IMG/VR virus record: IMGVR_UViG_2690316097_000008
Length of the DNA stretch: 14,055 bases
Reading direction: 5' to 3' (one strand)
Source: a virus
Lineage: Duplodnaviria; Heunggongvirae; Uroviricota; Caudoviricetes
Shown piece by piece: positions 459 through 13,305 of this stretch; positions within the stretch are counted from its first letter, which is position 1; each line of letters begins with the position of its first letter. Position numbers and translations under genes: made by a program. The notes below the pieces were generated by a model. The model saw only the letters and a program-made list of their open reading frames with translations, did no database searches and was not told the origin of the DNA.

Positions 459-674
459 TTACTCTCCCCGTGCAGCCTTACGACGGTCCTCTCTGATTTT
501 GAAATACAGGTTAGTCAGATATGTCAGCAGCCCAAACAGCAGACTCCCCAGCACGCCTATTGCCGCCCACTGAGACGGGGAAACCCTGTCCAGCAACTGC
601 AGGAACCAGTAGCCCGTTCCCACCGCTGACGTGGTGTATGACACACCTGTTGTGATTTTTTCCATCTGGTACAT
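459..674 (-). CDS. S: Class II holin (pinholin), phage 21 S-like, with dual-start motif
   Basis: From the internal Met the product reads [71 protein letters not shown], nearly identical to the recalled phage 21 S21 pinholin. Two Met codons three residues apart match the S21 71/68 antiholin/holin arrangement. GGGAGA lies about 10 nt upstream; the track ORF 459..752 is an in-frame upstream extension with no RBS. Confidence 0.85.
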
Positions 675-824
675 ACCCCGTCTCCCGTTATCCGGAAGCT
701 GACAACAATAAAAAAAGCCACCAGTTAAGTACTGATGGCTCTGATAACTCATGCAGGCATCTCAGACGACCCACTGACACTACCGGTGAGTTTAACGATA
801 CCTTCCATTTGGCTGGCTCACTTT

Positions 825-2678
825 TTATGATGATGCCGGTGCATTTATCTCCAGCACCAGACTTTCTATCTCAACGCCATACGCTGCATTTTTGGTAATA
901 TCCGTCAGCGTCAGCGCATTCAGCCCCAGTGTCAGACTGTCTTTTATGACCTGGAATGCCGGGCCAGCCACTCCATTCAGTTTCGGAGTAACCGTGGCAC
1001 TGCCGGCGGTGAACACCAGCTCCAGCGTCAGCCAGTCGTTACTGTAATTCCCGAACTCGCCCAACTTTGTGTTTCCTGCTTTCTTGTGATGCATCAGATT
1101 CAGTTTGCCGTCTGTGGTCTGGGTGAAGAACGACATCAGGAACGGGTTACCAGTCCCGGTCATCGCCACGACGTCAGGTAACGCTACATCGGTATACAGA
1201 TAAATTCCCAGACCGAACTGGTTGTTGGTCAGTGCGCCTGACAGTCGAAACTTACAGCTCAGTCTGCCACCCCGTGTCAGCAGGGAGACTGCGTCATCCA
1301 CCGGGCGCGTCAGGGACCAGGCTTTATTGCTCTGCTTGGTGATCTTAAATACACCATCTGACAACTGAACTCCGCCATTCTTAATGCTCCAGCCCTGCGC
1401 AGCAGCGTCTCCGGCTGTCGGCAACAGGGAGATTGTGCGTATGGATGCATCTTCAGACGGCCCCGATGGCGTGTCGCCGCCGGGCGAGGGTTTGATTTCC
1501 GGTGCCTTACCACTAATGAAGGCTAAGGTGCGACCGGCTACGTTCAGAATAGCAGTTGCCATACGATCGGGAATAATGCCACGACGCGCCCATGAGCTGA
1601 AATGCGTCGGGCGATTTGATGATACCCAGTTTTTGTTCGTTCGGGATGCCGAACCGTAATAACCAGACCCGGCAATATCAGGATCTTCTGACGGGTTGTT
1701 TGTCGGTGTATTAACTCCGCTACCATCGGTCATAAAGGGAACAAAATAAATCTGCTGGGATTCTTTACCTTTATATGCACCATATACCACTTCATATTGC
1801 GTACCGTGTTCTTGTTTCCACGCGTATGTCGTGTCGCCACAAATCCAGGGGACTGATGCCGGACTTCCACCGTGACACTGCGCCGCCAGCCCGGCAAGGT
1901 CAGCACGGAACTGCTGTACCATTGCAAGAAATGCTGCTGGCTGCTGGGCGTAACTGGCATTCGTCATATCGAATTCCCCCTGCATCCAGCATATCGCCAG
2001 CAAAACGTTTTTCGGGTTTTTCTGCAATGCTGCCTTCGTGCGGAAAAGCAGATCCTGATATAACGGCTTACCCACTCCCCAGCGAGCCGAATCCTGACTG
2101 GCCCCCGTGGACTCGCTGAATGTCCCCTCCGTGCCCTGGGTGAATGCCGAACCACCACAACAGCATGGTACCAGCAGGATCCCCGCATTATTAGGGATAT
2201 ACGGAAGCAGTTTTTTGGCAATATGTAAGCCCTGTCCGACACAGCCGTACTGCCCTTTGCTCAGGTCAGCCCGGGGATGGTTAATCGTACTCATATCCTG
2301 AACATCATGCAGACAATGGTCAGCAGGAATGATGTCGTTAAATACGCATACTTCACCACCGGGAGTCACTGTGTTACGACGGGCCAGTTGCTTAATGCGC
2401 GGATGGGGCGCATCGTATGAATCCGGAAGCGGAAGACCTTCACCGTAAGCCATGGCATTGGATTGCCCGGCCAGTACGATGACGTAGTACCACTCCGGCT
2501 CAGTTGCACCACTGACGACCACATCACCTTCTGCTGCAATCGCCTGCATCAGGGTATAAGGGGTTATGGCCACCGGACTACCAAACGGCTGCCAGCCCTC
2601 CTTCAGTTTTTGTGTCAGTCGTTTCGCAAGGTCTGACGGCGATGCCGCCCTGACCACGTCATAGTGTTTAAATGCCAT
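825..2678 (-). CDS. nanS-p: Prophage sialate 9-O-acetylesterase NanS-p (N-terminal DUF1737-like region plus SGNH/SASA esterase domain)
   Basis: 617-aa ORF with ATG at 2678 and GGGAGGA 5 nt upstream. The block YYVIVLAGQSNAMAYGEGLPLPDSYDAPHPRIKQLARR...DIIPADHCLHDVQDMS...LLVPCCCGGSAFTQG...WMQGEFD matches recalled E. coli NanS/YjhS including the GQSN catalytic motif. Location upstream of the lysis genes is typical for lambdoid and Stx prophages. Confidence 0.9.
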   Translation of the reverse strand: MAFKHYDVVRAASPSDLAKRLTQKLKEGWQPFGSPVAITPYTLMQAIAAEGDVVVSGATEPEWYYVIVLAGQSNAMAYGEGLPLPDSYDAPHPRIKQLARRNTVTPGGEVCVFNDIIPADHCLHDVQDMSTINHPRADLSKGQYGCVGQGLHIAKKLLPYIPNNAGILLVPCCCGGSAFTQGTEGTFSESTGASQDSARWGVGKPLYQDLLFRTKAALQKNPKNVLLAICWMQGEFDMTNASYAQQPAAFLAMVQQFRADLAGLAAQCHGGSPASVPWICGDTTYAWKQEHGTQYEVVYGAYKGKESQQIYFVPFMTDGSGVNTPTNNPSEDPDIAGSGYYGSASRTNKNWVSSNRPTHFSSWARRGIIPDRMATAILNVAGRTLAFISGKAPEIKPSPGGDTPSGPSEDASIRTISLLPTAGDAAAQGWSIKNGGVQLSDGVFKITKQSNKAWSLTRPVDDAVSLLTRGGRLSCKFRLSGALTNNQFGLGIYLYTDVALPDVVAMTGTGNPFLMSFFTQTTDGKLNLMHHKKAGNTKLGEFGNYSNDWLTLELVFTAGSATVTPKLNGVAGPAFQVIKDSLTLGLNALTLTDITKNAAYGVEIESLVLEINAPASS

Positions 2679-2900: not shown

Positions 2901-2909
2901 GCCCACAAG

Positions 2910-2935
2910 AAAACCCCTCCGGAGAGGGGCTAAAG
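2910..2935 (-). terminator. Terminator-like hairpin (cccctc-cgga-gagggg) with U-rich tail on the minus strand
   Basis: Stem-loop at 2914..2929; the minus-strand transcript reads ...cccctctccggagggg then ttttctt. A near-identical hairpin recurs at 4222..4239. Confidence 0.4.
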
Positions 2936-2987
2936 CCGCGTATCTGTATCATCATGCACATGGTGCCGGGTGCCTCCCGGTGAGTTC

Positions 2988-3111
2988 NNNNNNNNNNNNN
3001 NNNNNNNNNNNNNNNNNNNNNNNNNNNNNNNNNNNNNNNNNNNNNNNNNNNNNNNNNNNNNNNNNNNNNNNNNNNNNNNNNNNNNNNNNNNNNNNNNNNN
3101 NNNNNNNNNNN
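2988..3111. other. Run of N (124 nt), assembly gap or masked sequence
   Basis: Direct observation. It is flanked by sequence repeated at 4264..4288 on one side and by a second nanS-p start on the other. Confidence 1.
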
Positions 3112-3133
3112 CATCATAGTGTTTAAATGCCAT
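3112..3133 (-). pseudogene. 5' end of a second nanS-p-like gene, interrupted by the N run
   Basis: Reverse complement reads ATGGCATTTAAACACTATGATG = MAFKHYD, matching the nanS-p start at 2678..2657, with a GGTGGAAAG RBS-like sequence upstream. Confidence 0.5.
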
Positions 3134-3326
3134 GGTTCTTTCCACCATCTGAAAAATAATTCTTTAAAATACCTGACATGTAATACAGAAAAAACACAAA
3201 ACCATACCTTAAATAAAAACCTGATTATCAAGCAGATATGCATGGATAAACTACAAGACGAGATATAAACCACCCTGCATTTAAATAAACAATAAACAAC
3301 ATCAGAAAAATAATTCTGCTCTATGG

Positions 3327-3353
3327 TTTACATTCAAAAATATCATTTATACT
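3327..3353 (+). promoter_or_regulatory. Candidate sigma70 promoter for the AT-rich plus-strand ORF
   Basis: TTTACA at 3327..3332, 15-nt spacer, TATACT at 3348..3353, about 40 nt upstream of the ATG at 3394. Sequence-only prediction in AT-rich DNA, so the false-positive risk is high. Confidence 0.3.
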
Positions 3354-3393
3354 TTTCAGAACATCACCAGCAAGGCATAAACAAGGAAACTAA

Positions 3394-3729
3394 ATGAAGT
3401 GGATTGTGATTGATACAGTTATCCAGCCATCATGCGGAATATCTTTTTCAGTCATATGGAGTAAAATAAAATTAATAATCTGGTATCAATCGGATGCTTT
3501 CTTACCTCCTGAAAGTATATTTACACTGACTCACACAGGCATCATGCTCAATAACAAAGTGCTACCTGTAACCATTTACAACGTAGTACCATTCAATAAA
3601 ACATTCTGGAATTCAATCAAAAATAGCCAGGAATGCCCTACAAATACAGATAACGTATTGAATGAATGCTTTAATAACCGTTGCACTCTGCAAATATGTC
3701 CTTATGGACTAAAACAACAAAGTCCATAA
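3394..3729 (+). CDS. Hypothetical protein, AT-rich ORF of 111 aa with a Cys-rich C-terminus
   Basis: ORF with AAGGAAA Shine-Dalgarno 6-7 nt before the ATG. It is opposite in orientation to every other prophage gene here and its stop codon lies inside the 3699..3732 hairpin. No recognised family. Confidence 0.4.
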
Positions 3730-3765
3730 GGAGTTTACTCACATCTGACAAAATCAATATAAACA
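3582..3765. repeat. Direct repeat, copy 1 (3' part of the AT-rich ORF plus hairpin); copy 2 at 4046..4217
   Basis: 184 bp near-identical to 4046..4217 except that the hairpin loop is inverted. Copy 2 is preceded by N runs. Confidence 0.9.
3699..3732. repeat. Perfect 12-bp stem hairpin (tccttatggact / agtccataagga) with loop aaaacaacaa
   Basis: Direct observation; the loop is the exact reverse complement of the loop in copy 2. Confidence 0.9.
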
Positions 3766-3977
3766 NNNNNNNNNNNNNNNNNNNNNNNNNNNNNNNNNNN
3801 NNNNNNNNNNNNNNNNNNNNNNNNNNNNNNNNNNNNNNNNNNNNNNNNNNNNNNNNNNNNNNNNNNNNNNNNNNNNNNNNNNNNNNNNNNNNNNNNNNNN
3901 NNNNNNNNNNNNNNNNNNNNNNNNNNNNNNNNNNNNNNNNNNNNNNNNNNNNNNNNNNNNNNNNNNNNNNNNNNNNN
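3766..3977. other. Run of N (212 nt)
   Basis: Direct observation. Confidence 1.
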
Positions 3978-4003
3978 AAAAAGGCCCACCGGAGCGGATG
4001 GGC

Positions 4004-4045
4004 NNNNNNNNNNNNNNNNNNNNNNNNNNNNNNNNNNNNNNNNNN
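4004..4045. other. Run of N (42 nt)
   Basis: Direct observation; the island 3978..4003 between the two N runs carries another ccgga-containing hairpin-like sequence. Confidence 1.
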
Positions 4046-4217
4046 CATTCAATAAAACATTCTGGAATTCAATCAAAAATAGCCAGGAATGCCCTACAAA
4101 TACAGATAACGTATTGAATGAATGCTTTAATAACCGTTGCACTCTGCAAATATGTCCTTATGGACTTTGTTGTTTTAGTCCATAAGGAGTTTACTCACAT
4201 CTGACAAAATCAATATA
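4046..4217. repeat. Direct repeat, copy 2 of 3582..3765
   Basis: Near-identical to copy 1, then followed by the 4222..4239 hairpin. Confidence 0.9.
4155..4188. repeat. Same 12-bp stem hairpin as 3699..3732 but with the loop inverted (ttgttgtttt)
   Basis: Direct observation. Confidence 0.9.
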
Positions 4218-4444
4218 AACAGCCCCTCCGGAGAGGGGCTGGAGAGTGGCGCTATGTGCCATTGCATGGTGCCGGGTGCCTCCCGGTGAATTCAGTACCA
4301 GCACCTGAATCCGCGATTATCCCATATACCTACTCGCTGATTGCCCCTCCGCACAGGGGGATTCACCATGCCAGTTTCTTTTAACAAACTCCCCGCAAAC
4401 CAGACAACAGTCAACCGCCTGAATTGTGAAGTATTTAAAAATTT

Positions 4445-4525
4445 CTCCCGCTAACTGATACCCGGCTAACAGTCTGGCGTTTTCTTTTTCAGCAACGGGA
4501 AAGCAACAACCACCACACCCGCCAC
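4445..4525. repeat. 81-bp direct repeat, copy 1 (copy 2 at 4599..4679), separated by a 73-nt N run
   Basis: ctcccgctaactgatacccggctaacagtctggcgttttctttttcagcaacgggaaagcaacaaccaccacacccgccac occurs twice. Confidence 0.9.
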
Positions 4526-4598
4526 NNNNNNNNNNNNNNNNNNNNNNNNNNNNNNNNNNNNNNNNNNNNNNNNNNNNNNNNNNNNNNNNNNNNNNNNN
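4526..4598. other. Run of N (73 nt)
   Basis: Direct observation. Confidence 1.
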
Positions 4599-4679
4599 CT
4601 CCCGCTAACTGATACCCGGCTAACAGTCTGGCGTTTTCTTTTTCAGCAACGGGAAAGCAACAACCACCACACCCGCCAC
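4599..4679. repeat. 81-bp direct repeat, copy 2
   Basis: Identical to 4445..4525. Confidence 0.9.
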
Positions 4680-5250: not shown

Positions 5251-5327
5251 TGGCGCGCTGTACTGGATTCGAACCAGTGACCGATTGCTTAGAAGGCAAT
5301 TGCTCTGTCCGGCTGAGCTAACAACGC
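5251..5327 (-). tRNA. argO: tRNA-Arg (anticodon UCU)
   Basis: Manual fold of the reverse complement: acceptor GCGTTGT/ACAGCGC, D-stem GCTC/GAGC, anticodon stem ATTGC/GCAAT with loop CTTCTAA, T-arm ACTGG-TTCGAAT-CCAGT, encoded CCA. The symbol is assigned by position in the recalled 933W ileZ-argN-argO order and is tentative. Confidence 0.8.
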
Positions 5328-5340
5328 ATGATGCAGATAA

Positions 5341-5417
5341 TGGACCGCCATCGGGGACTTGAACCCCGCGCAGCCAGCTTCGAAGGCTGGCGCTCTTTCC
5401 TGATGAGCTAATGGCGG
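5341..5417 (-). tRNA. argN: tRNA-Arg (anticodon UCG)
   Basis: Manual fold: acceptor CCGCCAT/ATGGCGG, D-stem GCTC/GAGC, anticodon stem CCAGC/GCTGG with loop CTTCGAA, T-arm CGGGG-TTCAAGT-CCCCG, encoded CCA. Symbol by position and tentative; a C1 5' base is unusual. Confidence 0.7.
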
Positions 5418-5424
5418 TATGTGA

Positions 5425-5500
5425 TGGTGGCCCTTGCTGGATTTGAACCAGCGACCTGGCGATTATGAGTCGCTCGCTCTCACCACTGAGCTAAAGGGCC
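5425..5500 (-). tRNA. ileZ: tRNA-Ile2 (anticodon CAU, lysidine-type; could also be read as tRNA-Met)
   Basis: Reverse complement GGCCCTTTAGCTCAGTGGTGAGAGCGAGCGACTCATAATCGCCAGGTCGCTGGTTCAAATCCAGCAAGGGCCACCA is close to recalled E. coli ileX/ileY; anticodon loop CTCATAA. Confidence 0.8.
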
Positions 5501-5540: not shown

Positions 5541-6599
5541 TCATCCGTTCTGGCTGACTAAATCCTGTACTTCCCGAACCGTCTGCTCAAAACGTTCAGT
5601 CTCCAGCTCAACGCCAATTGCACGACGCCCGAGCGCCAGTGCCGCTTTCACTGTCGAACCCAACCCCATGAAAAAATCTGCAATCAGGTCACCCGGACGA
5701 CTGCTAGCGCTGATTATCTGCTGCAGCATTTCTGCCGGTTTTTCGCACGGATGTTTCCCGGGATAGAACTGCACCGGTTTATGCGTCCACACATCGGTAT
5801 ACGGCACCTGCACCGTCACGCCAAAATACCGCCGCAGATGTTTATATTCACTCAGCAGCTCCGCATACTGCCGGTTCAGTGAGGTATACGTATCCACCAG
5901 CTGGTGGTGGAGCTTTTCCAGTTCACCACGCCGATGCTTCTCTTCTGCCACCCGGGCAAACAGCGCCTGTAATTTCAGATAATCGCTTTCATTCGGCAAC
6001 TGCCACTGACCGGCACTGAACCAGTGCGACACCATGTTTTTCTTTCCTGTGGCATCTGCAATCTGTTTTGCCGTTATCCCCAGGGCAGCTCGCGCATCAC
6101 GAAAGTAAGAAATCAGCGGGGCCATCACATGCTGTTTCAGTGCACTGCCCTTCGCCGCATACCCGGCATCTTTCGGACGATACGGCCCCTGATAATGTTC
6201 CGCGAACAGAATGCGCTCTGTGGCGGGGAAATACGCCCGCAGGCTTTCCTTGTTGCATCCGTTCCAGCGTCCGGACGGCTTCGCCCAGATAATATGGTTC
6301 AGCACACTGAAGCGTTCACGCATCATGATTTCGATATCAGATGCCAGGCGATGACCACAGAACAGGTAAAGACTTCCGGCAGGTTTCAGCACCCGCCAGA
6401 ACTGCGCCAGACACTGGTCCAGCCACTTCAGGTAATCATCGTCGCCCTTCCACTGGTTATCCCAGCCCTCAGGCTTCACTTTAAAGTACGGCGGGTCCGT
6501 GACTATCAGGTCAACAGAATTTTCGGGTAACGACCGGATAAATTCCAGGCAGTCGGCGTTGATTAACTCACAACTGGATATTTTTACAGCATTAAGCAT
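5541..6599 (-). CDS. Orphan DNA methyltransferase (beta-class; N6-adenine or N4-cytosine)
   Basis: 352-aa ORF with ATG start. DLIVTDPPY catalytic motif near the N-terminus and FFMGLGST (FxGxG AdoMet motif) near the C-terminus give the motif IV-before-I order of beta-class amino-MTases. No restriction endonuclease gene is adjacent. Weak Shine-Dalgarno. Confidence 0.85.
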   Translation of the reverse strand: MLNAVKISSCELINADCLEFIRSLPENSVDLIVTDPPYFKVKPEGWDNQWKGDDDYLKWLDQCLAQFWRVLKPAGSLYLFCGHRLASDIEIMMRERFSVLNHIIWAKPSGRWNGCNKESLRAYFPATERILFAEHYQGPYRPKDAGYAAKGSALKQHVMAPLISYFRDARAALGITAKQIADATGKKNMVSHWFSAGQWQLPNESDYLKLQALFARVAEEKHRRGELEKLHHQLVDTYTSLNRQYAELLSEYKHLRRYFGVTVQVPYTDVWTHKPVQFYPGKHPCEKPAEMLQQIISASSRPGDLIADFFMGLGSTVKAALALGRRAIGVELETERFEQTVREVQDLVSQNG

Positions 6600-7171: not shown

Positions 7172-7993
7172 TTACCTAGTTACCTTTTTTAACTGCCGCT
7201 CAGCCCATGCTTCTTCAATATCAAACCGGGTCACCAGCGCATCATAGAATTTCTTAACTGTTTTTTCCCATGACGCGCGTGTTATCTGGTTTGTCACCTC
7301 GCATATAGCATTAAATGCCTCCGTTGATGGTAGTCTTTCATAGCCACGACCACCACAACGCTGGCAGTCTCTGATAACAGGCATACCACGTTTTACCGAC
7401 TCTTCACGATGAATGGCGACACCACGCCCACGGCAATCCTTACAGGCGGTGGAAACCTCACCCTTTCCGCCACACTCCGGACAGGCAACTTTTACCACCT
7501 CCCTGACTTTTTTCCATTCTTCCCAGTAAGACGGATACACACCTTTCGTACACTTTGCCCATACCGGCGGCTTACCATCCGGATACTGGATCTTGTTTGT
7601 AAAAACCTCGCTTTCAATAAATTTTTTTCCGTGACAGCAGGGGCACTGTTTTTTGCTCGCCGCGCTACGGGCATAATCTTCAAACGCATACGAAGCCATA
7701 ATACGCATCACTGCCGGTTTTATTTCTGCCGGGAGTTTTCTTAACGCCGCCACGCGATCACACCGACTGAGTGCATATTCTGTCAGCAATTCTGTTGCCC
7801 GCTCTCTGTCATTCATACTAATGCCCATTTTCCCAAGGAACGCAGAAACCCCCATCTCAGCCCGATTCTGTGTCATGCCCTGCGCGGCCATCACATCAGT
7901 GATACTCAGCGCATCTTTCGACGTTGAGGCCGATGCATCAGTCAGGCCGGGGGATTTTGGGGAGTAGTATTTCGGTAAATCTTCCAGTTTCAT
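7172..7993 (-). CDS. Q: Late-gene antiterminator Q (QuuQ/Qin-type, zinc-binding), copy 1
   Basis: 273-aa ORF. N-terminus MKLEDLPKYYSPKSP...SITDVMAAQGM and C-terminus ...QLKKVTR match recalled E. coli QuuQ, with several CxxC pairs. Its start overlaps the rusA stop (ATGA) and the pR' promoter follows immediately downstream. Confidence 0.8.
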   Translation of the reverse strand: MKLEDLPKYYSPKSPGLTDASASTSKDALSITDVMAAQGMTQNRAEMGVSAFLGKMGISMNDRERATELLTEYALSRCDRVAALRKLPAEIKPAVMRIMASYAFEDYARSAASKKQCPCCHGKKFIESEVFTNKIQYPDGKPPVWAKCTKGVYPSYWEEWKKVREVVKVACPECGGKGEVSTACKDCRGRGVAIHREESVKRGMPVIRDCQRCGGRGYERLPSTEAFNAICEVTNQITRASWEKTVKKFYDALVTRFDIEEAWAERQLKKVTR

Positions 7994-8095
7994 TTTTTGA
8001 CCTGCCCTTCAAGCATTATGGGATAAATCTTCACCCCCAGACGTCCACCAGATACTGGCTGAGCACGAACGATATTGATTTCATCAAACTGCTCA
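7990..8095 (-). pseudogene. rusA: rusA 3' fragment (about 35 C-terminal codons), cut off by the N run
   Basis: Near-identical to the 3' end of the rusA copies at 8849..8955 and 10592..10700. Confidence 0.6.
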
Positions 8096-8106
8096 NNNNN
8101 NNNNNN
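8096..8106. other. Run of N (11 nt) at a duplication junction
   Basis: Separates the rusA 3' fragment from sequence internal to Q copy 2. Confidence 1.
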
Positions 8107-8852
8107 AATTTCTTAACTGTTTTTTCCCATGACGCGCGTGTTATCTGGTTTGTCACCTCGCATATAGCATTAAATGCCTCCGTTGATGGTAGTCTTTCAT
8201 AGCCACGACCACCACAACGCTGGCAGTCTCTGATAACAGGCATACCACGTTTTACCGACTCTTCACGATGAATGGCGACACCACGCCCACGGCAATCCTT
8301 ACAGGCGGTGGAAACCTCACCCTTTCCGCCACACTCCGGACAGGCAACTTTTACCACCTCCCTGACTTTTTTCCATTCTTCCCAGTAAGACGGATACACA
8401 CCTTTCGTACACTTTGCCCATACCGGCGGCTTACCATCCGGATACTGGACCTTGTTTGTAAAAACTACGCTTTCAATAAATTTTTCCCCATAGCAACAAG
8501 GGCACTGCTTTTTACTCGCTGCGCTGCGGGCATAATCCTCAAAAGCGTACGAAGCCATAATGCGCATCACTACCGGTTTTATTTCTGCCGGAAGTTTTCT
8601 CAACGCCGCCACACGATCGCACCGACTGAGTGCATAATCTGCCAGTAATTCTGTTGCCCGCGCCCTGTCATTCATACTGATGCCCATTTTCCCCAGGAAC
8701 GCAGAAAACCCCATCTCAGCCCGATTCTGTGTCATGCCCTGCGCGGCCATCACATCAGTGATACTCAGCGCATCTTTTGACGTTGAGGCCGATGCATCGG
8801 TCAGGCAAGGGGATTTTGGGGAGTAGTATTTCGGTAAATCTTCCAGTTTCAT
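8107..8852 (-). CDS. Q: Antiterminator Q, copy 2; the last ~25 codons are missing at the N-run junction
   Basis: About 96% amino-acid identity to copy 1 over about 248 residues, with scattered substitutions (G16C, V49F, E64A, H118Y and others), so it is a distinct paralog and not an exact duplicate. The track ORF 8031..8852 reads through the Ns into the rusA fragment. Confidence 0.75.
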
Positions 8853-9223
8853 TTTTTGACCTGCTCTTCATGCATTATGGGGTAAATCTTCACCCCCAGA
8901 CGTCCACCAGATACTGGCTGAGCACGAACGATATTGATTTCATCAAACTGCTCATCGTCCATTAACACTCCCGCATGTGTCAGTGCATCCAGTGGTGCTT
9001 TCAGGATATTGTCCAGGTCACGACGGCGCTTATCCGGTGGCTCTGCAATAATCTTTATCGCCAGTCTTCCGGACAGGCTTAATTTCAGTCGCTGCTGACG
9101 GACAATAAGCGCCACATCCCGGCGATAACGCTCACCGGCTTTTGATACAAAATATGTGTTGTCACGACGTCGCCAGTAAGTATTCACCGTCGGCGGATAA
9201 GGTAAAATAAACTCATGGCGCAT
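8849..9223 (-). CDS. rusA: Holliday junction resolvase RusA
   Basis: 124-aa ORF with ATG start. LPYPPTVNTYWRRR...PDKRRRDLDNILKAPLDALT matches the recalled RusA family including the catalytic Asp cluster. Its stop overlaps the Q start. Confidence 0.85.
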   Translation of the reverse strand: MRHEFILPYPPTVNTYWRRRDNTYFVSKAGERYRRDVALIVRQQRLKLSLSGRLAIKIIAEPPDKRRRDLDNILKAPLDALTHAGVLMDDEQFDEINIVRAQPVSGGRLGVKIYPIMHEEQVKK

Positions 9224-9480: not shown

Positions 9481-9691
9481 AAGAAACGCTCCATCTTACT
9501 GCTGTCAGTTCGTTTATTACTGTATCTGCGCGGATTGCCGGGCTTCATGGGAGTGGAAAGCACCCGTGCACTTTCCTGGTCCACAGGCAGAAAATGTCCG
9601 TAGACTGGCCCCCTGAATCTCCAGACAACCAGTATCACTTAAATAAGTGATAGTCTTAATACTAGTTTTTAGACTAGTCATTGGAGTACAG

Positions 9692-10057
9692 ATGATTGAT
9701 GTCTTAGGGCCGGAGAAACGCAGACGGCGTACCACACAGGAAAAGATCGCAATTGTTCAGCAGAGCTTTGAACCGGGGATGACGGTCTCCCTCGTTGCCC
9801 GGCAACATGGTGTAGCAGCCAGCCAGTTATTTCTCTGGCGTAAGCAATACCAGGAAGGAAGTCTTACTGCTGTCGCCGCCGGAGAACAGGTTGTTCCTGC
9901 CTCTGAACTTGCTGCCGCCATGAAGCAGATTAAAGAACTCCAGCGCCTGCTCGGCAAGAAAACGATGGAAAATGAACTCCTCAAAGAAGCCGTTGAATAT
10001 GGACGGGCAAAAAAGTGGATAGCGCACGCGCCCTTATTGCCCGGGGATGGGGAGTAA
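9692..10057 (+). CDS. insC: IS2 transposase OrfA (InsC)
   Basis: [56 protein letters not shown]... matches recalled IS2 InsC; 121 aa from the ATG at 9692. Confidence 0.9.
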
Positions 10058-10431
10058 GCTTAGTCAGCCGTTGTCTCCGGGTGTCGCGTGCGCAGTTGCA
10101 CGTCATTCTCAGACGAACCGATGACTGGATGGATGGCCGCCGCAGTCGTCACACTGATGATACGGATGTGCTTCTCCGTATACACCATGTTATCGGAGAG
10201 CTGCCCACGTATGGTTATCGTCGGGTATGGGCGCTGCTTCGCAGACAGGCAGAACTTGATGGTATGCCTGCGATCAATGCCAAACGTGTTTACCGGATCA
10301 TGCGCCAGAATGCGCTGTTGCTTGAGCGAAAACCTGCTGTACCGCCATCGAAACGGGCACATACAGGCAGAGTGGCCGTGAAAGAAAGCAATCAGCGATG
10401 GTGCTCTGACGGGTTCGAGTTCTGCTGTGAT
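10015..10431 (+). pseudogene. insD: IS2 transposase OrfB (InsD), N-terminal part only
   Basis: The orfB frame reads ...[44 protein letters not shown]...[14 protein letters not shown] and then meets the N at 10432 and unrelated phage sequence. Confidence 0.75.
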
Positions 10432-10432
10432 N

Positions 10433-10595
10433 TCCCCAGGAACGCAGAAAACCCCATCTCAGCCCGATTCTGTGTCATGCCCTGCGCGGCCATCACATCA
10501 GTGATACTCAGCGCATCTTTCGACGTTGAGGCCGATGCATCAGTCAGGCCGGGGGATTTTGGGGAGTAGTATTTCGGTAAATCTTCCAGTTTCAT
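10433..10595 (-). pseudogene. Q: Antiterminator Q, N-terminal 54-codon fragment (copy 3), abutting the truncated IS2
   Basis: MKLEDLPKYYSPKSPGLTDASASTSKDALSITDVMAAQGMTQNRAEMGFSAFLG; the DNA matches copies 1 and 2 from about 10433 onward. Confidence 0.7.
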
Positions 10596-10972
10596 TTTTT
10601 GACCTGCCCTTCAAGCATTATGGGATAAATCTTCACCCCCAGACGTCCACCAGATACTGGCTGAGCACGAACGATATTGATTTCATCAAACTGCTCATCG
10701 TCCATTAGCAACCCCGCATGCGTCAGCGCATCCAGCGGCGCTTTCAGAATATTGTCCAGGTCACGGCGGCGCTTATCCGGTGGTTCTGCAATAATTTTTA
10801 TTGCCAACCTTCCGGACAGGCTTAATTTCAGCCGCTGCTGGCGAACAATAAGCGCCACTGCCCGGCGATAACGCTCCCCGGCTTTTGATACAAAATATGT
10901 GCTGCCACGACGACGCCAGTAAGTGTTCACCGTCGGCGGGTAAGGTAAAACAAATTCTATGCGCTCGGTCAT
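10592..10972 (-). CDS. rusA: Holliday junction resolvase RusA (second full copy)
   Basis: 126 aa, about 93% identical to the copy at 8849..9223. Its ATG directly follows the stop of the upstream DUF968-like ORF. Confidence 0.85.
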   Translation of the reverse strand: MTERIEFVLPYPPTVNTYWRRRGSTYFVSKAGERYRRAVALIVRQQRLKLSLSGRLAIKIIAEPPDKRRRDLDNILKAPLDALTHAGLLMDDEQFDEINIVRAQPVSGGRLGVKIYPIMLEGQVKK

Positions 10973-12031
10973 TTATGCTTTCCACTTCAGAACACCCGAA
11001 TTTCTCGCGTGCATTAAAAAACGAATCAGCAACAACAGCTGACTGCCGTGTTTCTCTTCAAAATCTTTTACTCCGGCATGTAGTTCGTTACGGCATTTAC
11101 GGCATAACGGAATAACAAACAAATCATCAGCCTTTGTTCCCATCCCTCCCAGTCCATGACCAATGATGTGATGCGGATCATCTGCCTGATTGCCACACGT
11201 CATGCATTTCTGCGTTTTTACCCAGCGCGTGTATACAGGCATCTCTTCCCGTTGTGATTTCTGGCGCTGGAGATACTGAGCCGGTGACTCCGGATCAACG
11301 GCAATGCTGACCACCGTCTTTTCCTGTGGTGGGTTCTGTTGCTGGTGGACGTGAGGCAGTAACGCAATATTTTTTGTGCGCTGCTTCAGTATGCTGGTGG
11401 CTGTCTGCTCTCCCGGTATGATGTCGCTTTCACTGTACACAGAGCGAATTTTTTCCGCACGCAACCCCAGCGAACGACGTAATACCGCTTCCGGTAGCGC
11501 GTCCGCCACCTGATTGCGGACCGCCCACCAGGATAATTCAGCCAGAGATAATTCACGCTCCTGCGTACCGCTTATTGCGTGACCGATGACGTCAATCATC
11601 CATGCTGACAGGTTTTGATGAGCAAGTTGCTCGAGTGATTCGGATGTCTGGTCACGCAGCTGGTTGTCGCAGTGCCAGCACAACACCATTGCGCCGGTAC
11701 CATAACGGTGAATGACGGTTTCGCTGTGATGATAATCGCCGTGTGGCCACTGGCAGGATTTAATATGGCGCAACAGCCAGTCAGACAATGCACCAGCACC
11801 ACCAGCAGCACGAATCACCCGTGCGTTACTGAAAAACGGCAGCAATGTTTTGTCTTCCACCAGCGGCTGGCGAGCGGCAGGAACGACCCCGGACGGCAGA
11901 TTACGCATGCTTTTTGGTTCCGGCTCCACCAGTATTCTGCCGTTATGGAATGCTGACATTGATTCACGGCCTGGCTTAACGATAACCAGACCGAGTTCCG
12001 GTACCAGAACAGGTCGAAGTAATACCCGCAC
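10973..12031 (-). CDS. Lambdoid prophage DUF968-family protein (YdfU-like) with a C-terminal Cys/His HNH-like motif
   Basis: 352-aa ORF. The C-terminus CMTCGNQADDPHHIIGHGLGG...LCRKCRNELH is zinc-finger/HNH-like. Position upstream of rusA-Q matches the Qin ydfU position. The start codon is GTG with GGAGG 4 nt upstream and overlaps the upstream ORF stop. Confidence 0.7.
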   Translation of the reverse strand: MRVLLRPVLVPELGLVIVKPGRESMSAFHNGRILVEPEPKSMRNLPSGVVPAARQPLVEDKTLLPFFSNARVIRAAGGAGALSDWLLRHIKSCQWPHGDYHHSETVIHRYGTGAMVLCWHCDNQLRDQTSESLEQLAHQNLSAWMIDVIGHAISGTQERELSLAELSWWAVRNQVADALPEAVLRRSLGLRAEKIRSVYSESDIIPGEQTATSILKQRTKNIALLPHVHQQQNPPQEKTVVSIAVDPESPAQYLQRQKSQREEMPVYTRWVKTQKCMTCGNQADDPHHIIGHGLGGMGTKADDLFVIPLCRKCRNELHAGVKDFEEKHGSQLLLLIRFLMHARNSGVLKWKA

Positions 12032-12858: not shown

Positions 12859-13014
12859 TTACTCCTCAGGTTCGTAAGCTGTGAAGACAGCGACCTCCGT
12901 CTGGCCGGTTCGAATTCGTACCTCGCAGAGGTCTTTCCTCGTTACCAGTGCCGTCACTATGACGGTTAAACAGATGACGATCAGGGCGATTAACATCGCC
13001 TTTTGCTGCTTCAT
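12859..13014 (-). CDS. hokD: Hok/Gef-family type I toxin, HokD (RelF)-like, 51 aa
   Basis: MKQQKAMLIALIVICLTVIVTALVTRKDLCEVRIRTGQTEVAVFTAYEPEE matches recalled E. coli HokD. AGGAG lies 9 nt upstream of the ATG at 13014. The track ORF extends in frame to an ATG at 13071 with its own GAGG. Confidence 0.85.
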   Translation of the reverse strand: MKQQKAMLIALIVICLTVIVTALVTRKDLCEVRIRTGQTEVAVFTAYEPEE

Positions 13015-13305
13015 AGCCTGCTTCTCCTTGCCTTTCGGCACGTAAGAGGCTAACCTAGATTTGCCGTTCATAGATTGAGCCTCAGATTAATGTTAAGCGT
13101 CTTGCCGGACGCGTAATGTTAACTGGGGCTTTTCTCTATCTGCCTTTTGGTGTTCATGCCTGAGACAGATAGCCTCAAGCACCCGCTGCAATTCTACTTA
13201 ACTCTCCTTTTCCCGCAAACCGTTTTTATCCCCAGCGGCAAATCGAATACACCACCAGCGCCACCGCCATCGCAATTCCTACCGTTGTTAATGCTTCAGG
13301 CCAGG

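Follow-up and report, generated by a model that had tools for sequence, protein, structure and literature searches.

An AT-rich open reading frame antisense to the late genes of a lambdoid prophage is very probably iraL, the known gene of an RssB anti-adaptor

The 111-codon open reading frame on the plus strand of the window (the whole 14,055-nt stretch of DNA analysed here, IMG/VR record IMGVR_UViG_2690316097_000008) is, with high confidence on the basis of sequence comparison, iraL, the RssB anti-adaptor gene of a lambdoid-prophage moron. This gene has been described before: a 2014 publication, since cited by others, covers iraL together with its promoter, distribution and mechanism. The elements of the gene and of the cassette that carries it are as follows.

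3112-3134 (-): 23-nt leftover of the DUF1737/SASA esterase gene, namely its 5' end with the ATG (reverse complement of 3131-3133); left edge of the cassette, right after the N-run ending at 3111
3135-3326 (+): AT-rich region upstream of iraL, ~30% GC; in relatives, the divergent intergenic region shared with the esterase gene
3327-3332 (+): -35 element TTTACA of the sigma-70 promoter of iraL, identical in CFT073
3348-3353 (+): -10 element TATACT, identical in CFT073, ending 7 nt before the mapped start
3361 (+): transcription start of iraL, placed by homology to published 5' RACE
3383-3389 (+): Shine-Dalgarno sequence AAGGAAA, read from the sequence, 4 nt before the ATG
3394-3729 (+): iraL coding sequence for an RssB anti-adaptor of 111 aa, ATG start; differs from the CFT073 allele by L74S
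3699-3710 / 3721-3732 (+): hairpin with a perfect 12-bp stem and a 10-nt loop, covering the last codons, with the TAA (3727-3729) within the 3' arm
3733-3765 (+): last part of the cassette (3' tail), directly bounded by the N-run 3766-3977

The encoded protein is identical at 110 of 111 residues to IraL of E. coli CFT073 (WP_000871291.1, c1429), and the coding sequence matches CFT073 iraL (L115 23466-23801) at 334 of 336 nt. Hryckowian et al. (2014) divided iraL from iraM by a threshold of 95% nucleotide identity or more to CFT073 iraL, taken over the full coding region (PMC4045071), and the coding sequence of the window lies well inside it. The two loci further share the hairpin over the stop codon and the prophage slot; they differ by L74S and by two base changes near the start site. 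A profile-HMM search, which the initial annotation had recommended for this 111-aa plus-strand frame, assigned the protein to NCBIfam NF007393, "anti-adapter protein IraM" (162 bits against a curated cut-off of 121, E 4.7e-48, covering residues 1-110 of 111). A search of the PDB returned 8TWD (IraM; E 6e-31), with residues 1-78 aligning to the crystallised IraM core, and a search of PHROGs returned family 4407, of unknown function (E 3e-72). The protein is 62% identical to K-12-type IraM, in line with the published value of 58.9% between IraL and IraM, all iraL copies being at least 95% identical to one another (PMC4045071).

The 654-bp block (3112-3765) was found at no less than 90% identity in 1446 of 5426 complete E. 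coli genomes, in which RefSeq names the gene "anti-adapter protein IraM". That name masks the difference between IraL and IraM in regulation and in the mode of RssB binding, and correct annotation would be useful. Strain JJ1886, which carries two iraL copies (PMC4045071), is one of the 99.2% matches among these genomes, at two places. It had been proposed that frameshifts or stops in related sequences would speak against a functional gene; these were looked for, and all 103 full-length iraL copies in the loci fetched for comparison are intact open reading frames.

A TTTACA/TATACT promoter-like pair and the AAGGAAA Shine-Dalgarno sequence had both been pointed out in the initial annotation, and each is found where it was placed. 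Judged from composition, the pair would not stand out: the AT-rich stretch holds 6 promoter-like sites compared with 5.8 +/- 2.8 in shuffled versions, so that the pair is not above chance from sequence alone, and the consensus promoter scan did not call it because the spacer is only 15 nt. What validates the pair is solely the published 5'-RACE start of the near-identical allele, which maps to position 3361 and makes the promoter call correct. Sigma-70 elements were predicted for iraL and 5' RACE was carried out, giving the 5' end ACATCACCAGCAAGGCATAAACAAGGAAACCA (PMC4045071), and this sequence matches the window at 31 of 32 positions (3361-3392). A fragment from -100 to +33, together with the gene, complements a CFT073 iraL deletion and raises sigma-S in K-12 (PMC4045071); during log phase this CFT073-type promoter works in S. 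sonnei and K-12 as it does in CFT073. The 282 nt upstream of the coding sequence are ~99% identical to CFT073 and have a GC content of 29.8% (3112-3393). Among 101 fetched copies the -10 element TATACT is invariant, and the -35 element varies (TTTACA in 69, a one-base deletion, TTTA-A, in 21 and TTTATA in 11), in agreement with the -35 mutation published for the iraL2 copy of JJ1886; the authors of that report doubt that -35-mutant copies are expressed (PMC4045071). With a variable -35 and a fixed -10, iraL expression may be tuned from strain to strain, or lost.

The 12-bp hairpin over the stop codon is likewise real as a sequence feature of this allele, with a folding energy of -17.5 kcal/mol (z = -4.96) that none of 200 shuffled sequences equalled. 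Two roles were considered for it and rejected. A canonical intrinsic terminator is rejected, as only 5 of the 12 stem pairs are G-C, the stem is followed by GUUUACUCAC with no T-run, and the terminator scan does not list 3699-3732. A conserved functional RNA structure is also ruled out, as the hairpin decays without compensatory changes in the 88% allele (L119, z = -0.5), in the 75% allele (L116, z = -0.6) and in iraM (z = -0.9). The 3' arm is an inverted copy of the PYGL codons and supplies the extra QQSP and stop that set IraL apart from IraM, which ends in ...GLK. The hairpin is best described as an allele-specific inverted repeat that may, at most, modestly stabilise the 3' end of the mRNA. 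No terminator was assigned to iraL. The bases 3' of the cassette are N in the window; in relatives the next element is the convergent STnc100 terminator, which has no T-run on the plus strand.

The cassette sits in the late-regulatory region of a lambdoid prophage, which is encoded on the minus strand; the annotated parts of this segment are listed below.

459-752 (-): holin, the last element in the direction of transcription
825-2678 (-): nanS-p-type esterase (DUF1737/SASA), downstream of the iraL slot in the direction of transcription
2904-2987 (-): 3' part of a second STnc100-like copy, which shares ~80% identity with STnc100 regions in L001 and L002, cut by the N-run 2988-3111
4211-4400 (-): gene for the sRNA STnc100 (Rfam RF02076 at 132 bits, gathering score 47), convergent to iraL
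5251-5500 (-): three tRNAs, between the DNA methylase and STnc100
5541-6599 (-): DNA methylase, late-regulatory region
7172-7993 and 8031-8852 (-): Q antiterminators of 273 aa each (Pfam Antiterm)
8849-9223 and 10592-10972 (-): RusA genes, late-regulatory region
9647-10569 (+): IS3-family orfA and start of orfB (HTH_Tnp_1, E 2e-19; HTH_21), cut off at the single N at 10432
10973-12031 (-): DUF968, late-regulatory region
12859-13184 (-): hok/sok type I toxin-antitoxin module (Pfam HOK_GEF for the open reading frame 12859-13071; Rfam sok 13009-13184)

The order in CFT073 is Q, tRNAs, DUF3927, STnc100, iraL (opposite strand), DUF1737/esterase and holin, and the same order is present in the window. 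The tRNA at 5425-5500 (-) is called tRNA-Met (CAT) by ARAGORN, and the homologous gene of relatives is tRNA-Ile in RefSeq; presumably it has the usual ileZ-type CAT anticodon, which is read as Ile after lysidine modification. The iraL frame had been described as the only convincingly plus-strand unit of the segment, a statement that fails because the IS3-family orfA and the start of orfB also lie on that strand.

Both edges of the cassette can be placed by comparison with relatives. At the left, 3114-3134 repeats without a mismatch the start of the esterase open reading frame (2659-2679), and the esterase start directly adjoins the iraL upstream region in relatives (L045, L004 and L005). At the right, the base after the cassette tail in relatives begins the STnc100 terminator, GCCCCTCCGGAGAGGGGC, and in the window the terminator-like site of STnc100 (4241-4220) abuts the cassette end. 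The partial STnc100-like copy at 2904-2987 also contains a terminator-like site (2931-2912). STnc100 copies flank the iraL cassette, and two are also found in L002 (6871-7080 and 7358-7548). A 2026 preprint ties STnc100 to PasD and to the esterase neighbourhood. The STnc100 repeats are likely substrates for module shuffling.

The GC content of the 654-bp block is 32.3%, compared with 51.9% for positions 1-2987 and 53.3% for positions 4222-4525 (Ns left out), so the low GC content relative to the flanks that had been noted earlier is borne out. The cassette is carried by a prophage locus of E. coli 042 (L001), by L045 and by CFT073 (L115), and is missing from a second, syntenic locus of E. coli 042 (L002). 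It lies antisense between the Q/tRNA genes and the esterase/lysis genes, which is the slot of stx in Stx phages, and the term "moron" is therefore apt. The earlier reading of the frame as a horizontally acquired, independently transcribed unit within the late operon is supported by its deviant, AT-rich composition, its presence or absence in syntenic prophages, its antisense position and a promoter identical to the published, mapped one. Other morons of the Q-to-lysis region, namely the stx operon and the STnc100/PasD sRNAs, lie in this slot too, with the tRNAs on one side and the nanS-p-type esterase on the other, and likewise show presence/absence polymorphism and a composition unlike that of the flanks. 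However, stx points the same way as the late transcript, on which it depends, whereas iraL is antisense and has its own sigma-70 promoter.

Extrapolating from the published near-identical allele, the sigma-70 promoter (TTTACA, 15 nt, TATACT) would drive transcription from 3361, in a direction predicted to be antisense to the phage late transcript. IraL of CFT073 co-purifies with RssB, of which it binds the N-terminal receiver domain alone, and deletion of iraL halves the log-phase half-life of sigma-S in that strain, from about 5 to about 2.5 min (PMC4045071); iraL mRNA or protein is increased in a CFT073 fur mutant and after a shift to 37 C. The 111-aa product of the window, one residue different from the CFT073 allele, would likewise bind RssB, a response-regulator-like adaptor, via the N-terminal receiver domain. 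Such binding would stop RssB from handing RpoS (sigma-S) to ClpXP, and RpoS would be stabilised in exponential growth.

H-NS frequently silences DNA that is as rich in AT as this, and the upstream region of iraL has only ~30% GC. The gene might be a cryptic passenger of its host, silenced or disabled by L74S and having no effect on RpoS. We consider this highly improbable. L74S is indeed a minority allele, carried by 5 of the 103 full-length copies fetched, and it adjoins the position equivalent to Leu75, a contact residue of IraM (PMC10844676); the variation of the -35 among strains, and the published doubt about copies mutated there, also fit a silent gene. Against this, the window carries the CFT073-type -35 and -10, the promoter type that is active in log phase in three hosts, iraL mRNA responds to fur and to the shift to 37 C in CFT073, and the reading frame is universally intact (103/103).

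In the structure of the IraM-RssB complex, residues 1-78 of IraM form a PmrD-like beta-barrel that lies over the 4-5-5 face of the receiver domain and reshapes the linker (PMC10844676). By homology with IraM (PDB 8TWD), residues 1-78 of the window protein are predicted to form such a PmrD-like barrel in contact with RssB, and residues 79-111 a flexible tail with four invariant cysteines. The contact residues named for IraM are kept in the IraL of the window at C14, F18, W30, I61 and Y62 and differ at four positions (T13S, H63N, I64V and L75I). The crystallised IraM 1-78 is a soluble beta-barrel, obtained with cytoplasmic RssB; the C-terminal tail was removed for crystallisation as proteolytically unstable, and it was called flexible and less conserved (PMC10844676). 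An AlphaFold2 model of the window protein built from a 12-sequence alignment was too poor to use (pLDDT 39, pTM 0.28).

The Cys-rich tail that had been noticed in the translation consists of C81, C92, C97 and C102 (3634-3708, codons 81-105). Together with P103, Y104 and G105, which complete a CPYG motif, these cysteines do not vary among 12 representatives of the family (54-97% identical), an observation that contrasts with the description of the tail as less conserved in the structure paper (PMC10844676). The invariant four-cysteine tail is a small lead, for which a metal-binding or redox role is only a candidate.

The fold itself invites another reading, in which the protein would be a PmrD-type connector acting on a response regulator other than RssB, for example PmrA. 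The folds of IraM and PmrD can be superposed with an rmsd of about 1 A (PMC10844676), and the precomputed Pfam label of the whole family (P0001-P0020, L116-L119) is PF11183 (PmrD). Unlike this label, a search of Pfam-A with the window protein and its relatives (12 family members, E up to 10) gave no PF11183 and only a chance match to Nairovirus_NSm (E 0.056), and neither phmmer nor a profile search of the PDB matched a PmrD chain. Going by the structure of IraM (PMC10844676), PmrD (PDB 4HN7; PF11183) would share with IraL the small beta-barrel fold, and both bind a response-regulator-type receiver domain; these searches detected no sequence similarity between the two, their partners are PmrA and RssB, respectively, and the outcome of binding is different. 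Since RssB binding and sigma-S stabilisation have been directly shown for a 99%-identical protein, we regard a PmrD-type connector as exceedingly improbable and retain the assignment as an RssB anti-adaptor.

IraM of E. coli K-12 (YcgW/ElbA, encoded next to e14; PDB 8TWD) resembles IraL in family (NF007393), core length, the four tail cysteines, the CPYG motif and the target, RssB. The two differ in when they act, IraM upon Mg2+ starvation, which induces it, and IraL in log phase, and in that IraM binds both domains of RssB whereas IraL binds the N-terminal domain only. The iraM gene has no hairpin at its stop codon, is followed by an ordinary terminator and lies in another genomic context. 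RssC of Salmonella, compared by description only, is an IraL/IraM-like anti-adaptor, about 49% identical to iraL and restricted to Salmonella (PMC4045071).

Part of iraL occurs a second time in the given sequence.

4046-4221 (+): the 3' end of iraL once more, from codon 67 to codon 111 and 36 nt beyond, matching 3590-3765 at 166 of 176 positions

The initial annotation had described this partial duplication as reaching 4217; it is present as far as 4221, but as a feature of the genome it does not hold up well, since it abuts an N-run like every other sizeable direct repeat of the window. Six N-runs are present (2988-3111, 3766-3977, 4004-4045, 4526-4598, 8096-8106 and 10432), and in a self-comparison all sizeable direct repeats end exactly at one of them. 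The members of the 176-nt pair are separated by 3766-4045, which comprises two N-runs and a 26-nt island (3978-4003). A perfect 81-nt pair surrounds N4526-4598 (4445-4525 equals 4599-4679), an 848-nt pair that is 95.5% identical and represents two Q alleles surrounds N8096-8106 (7248-8095 and 8107-8954), another direct repeat starts right after N10432, and the 21-nt repeat of the esterase start lies two bases after N3111. With one copy and the gap taken out, the window is collinear with four close relatives (L001, L022, L045 and L079), and L003, also inspected, has the ordinary single-copy arrangement. Because the repeats all end at N-runs and the relatives are collinear, the N-runs are read as gaps and copy 2 as an artefact; masking by content would have hit both copies, and random masking would not fall on repeat boundaries. 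The N-runs would thus be scaffold gaps between overlapping contig ends, or bubbles from two similar prophages laid in tandem, and copy 2 is likely a scaffolding artefact, an unmerged contig end. In its behaviour the window resembles a scaffold with gaps in which two similar prophages are mixed. The two Q genes and the two RusA genes, which are divided by N-runs and the IS fragment, probably reflect the same scaffolding effect rather than a true tandem. The differences from the CFT073 locus, namely the STnc100-like segment and N-run between the esterase gene and the cassette, and the 3' fragment, are probably assembly effects also. Repeats beside N-runs in this window are not to be read as duplications.

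The 10 mismatches between the copies are the hairpin loop, which is exactly reverse-complemented in copy 2 (4167-4176), and this detail gives some weight to the alternative that copy 2 is a real pseudogene fragment, produced by illegitimate recombination between two STnc100-flanked prophage modules, with inversion of the loop in vivo via the 12-bp inverted repeat at the same time or later. An exact reverse complement of the loop as the sole difference is not something that a de Bruijn graph with k > 34 would invent, and the island at 3978-4003 matches the spacer of iraL-less prophages (L002 7148-7173), so material of another module lies between the copies. The STnc100 repeats that flank the region could in addition drive a rearrangement (PasD/STnc100 preprint). 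Nevertheless, the other direct repeats, including the perfect 81-nt pair, also end exactly at N-runs, the relatives become collinear on removal of one copy, and searches of 1419 complete E. coli genomes, of metagenome contigs and of fetched loci (114 examined, 109 of them with the normal form) turned up neither a tandem arrangement nor a flipped loop. Loop orientation in the fetched loci was scored with asymmetric flanks, the bare hairpin being its own reverse complement apart from the loop. A simple tandem duplication is ruled out as the source of copy 2, as 4434-4459 does not equal 3978-4003. We therefore regard a real fragment as unlikely, though well short of negligible, and prefer the scaffolding artefact.

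The flipped loop could stem from a minor allele, from a second copy or from a template switch at the inverted repeat. That it represents real biology, with the 12-bp inverted repeat acting as a small flip-flop or recombination hot spot at the right edge of the cassette, seems very improbable. If true, the flip in a full-length gene would change the C-terminus from KQQSP to CCFSP, adding two cysteines to the invariant four-cysteine tail, and would touch a part of the protein with candidate roles in metal or redox sensing or in the control of proteolytic instability.

Members of the IraL/IraM family also occur beside stx. The inducible phage 2851 (FM180578.1, about 24239-24562 on the complementary strand; L120 3001-3324, +) carries an intact, unannotated 107-aa open reading frame of this family between stx2cB and the esterase gene, on the opposite strand. 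Its product is 73% identical to IraL and 65% identical to IraM, and it is preceded by a TTGCTT/TATAAT promoter-like pair. The same frame is present, mostly unannotated, in 41 Stx2a/Stx2c phage records, and the 75% iraL allele lies in the same place beside stx in three E. coli genomes (L116-L118 3001-3336). These stx-side open reading frames fell outside the 2014 iraL survey because of its identity cut-off of 95%. If active, the IraL/IraM-family frame adjacent to stx2c would link carriage of a toxin phage to RpoS-dependent stress resistance.
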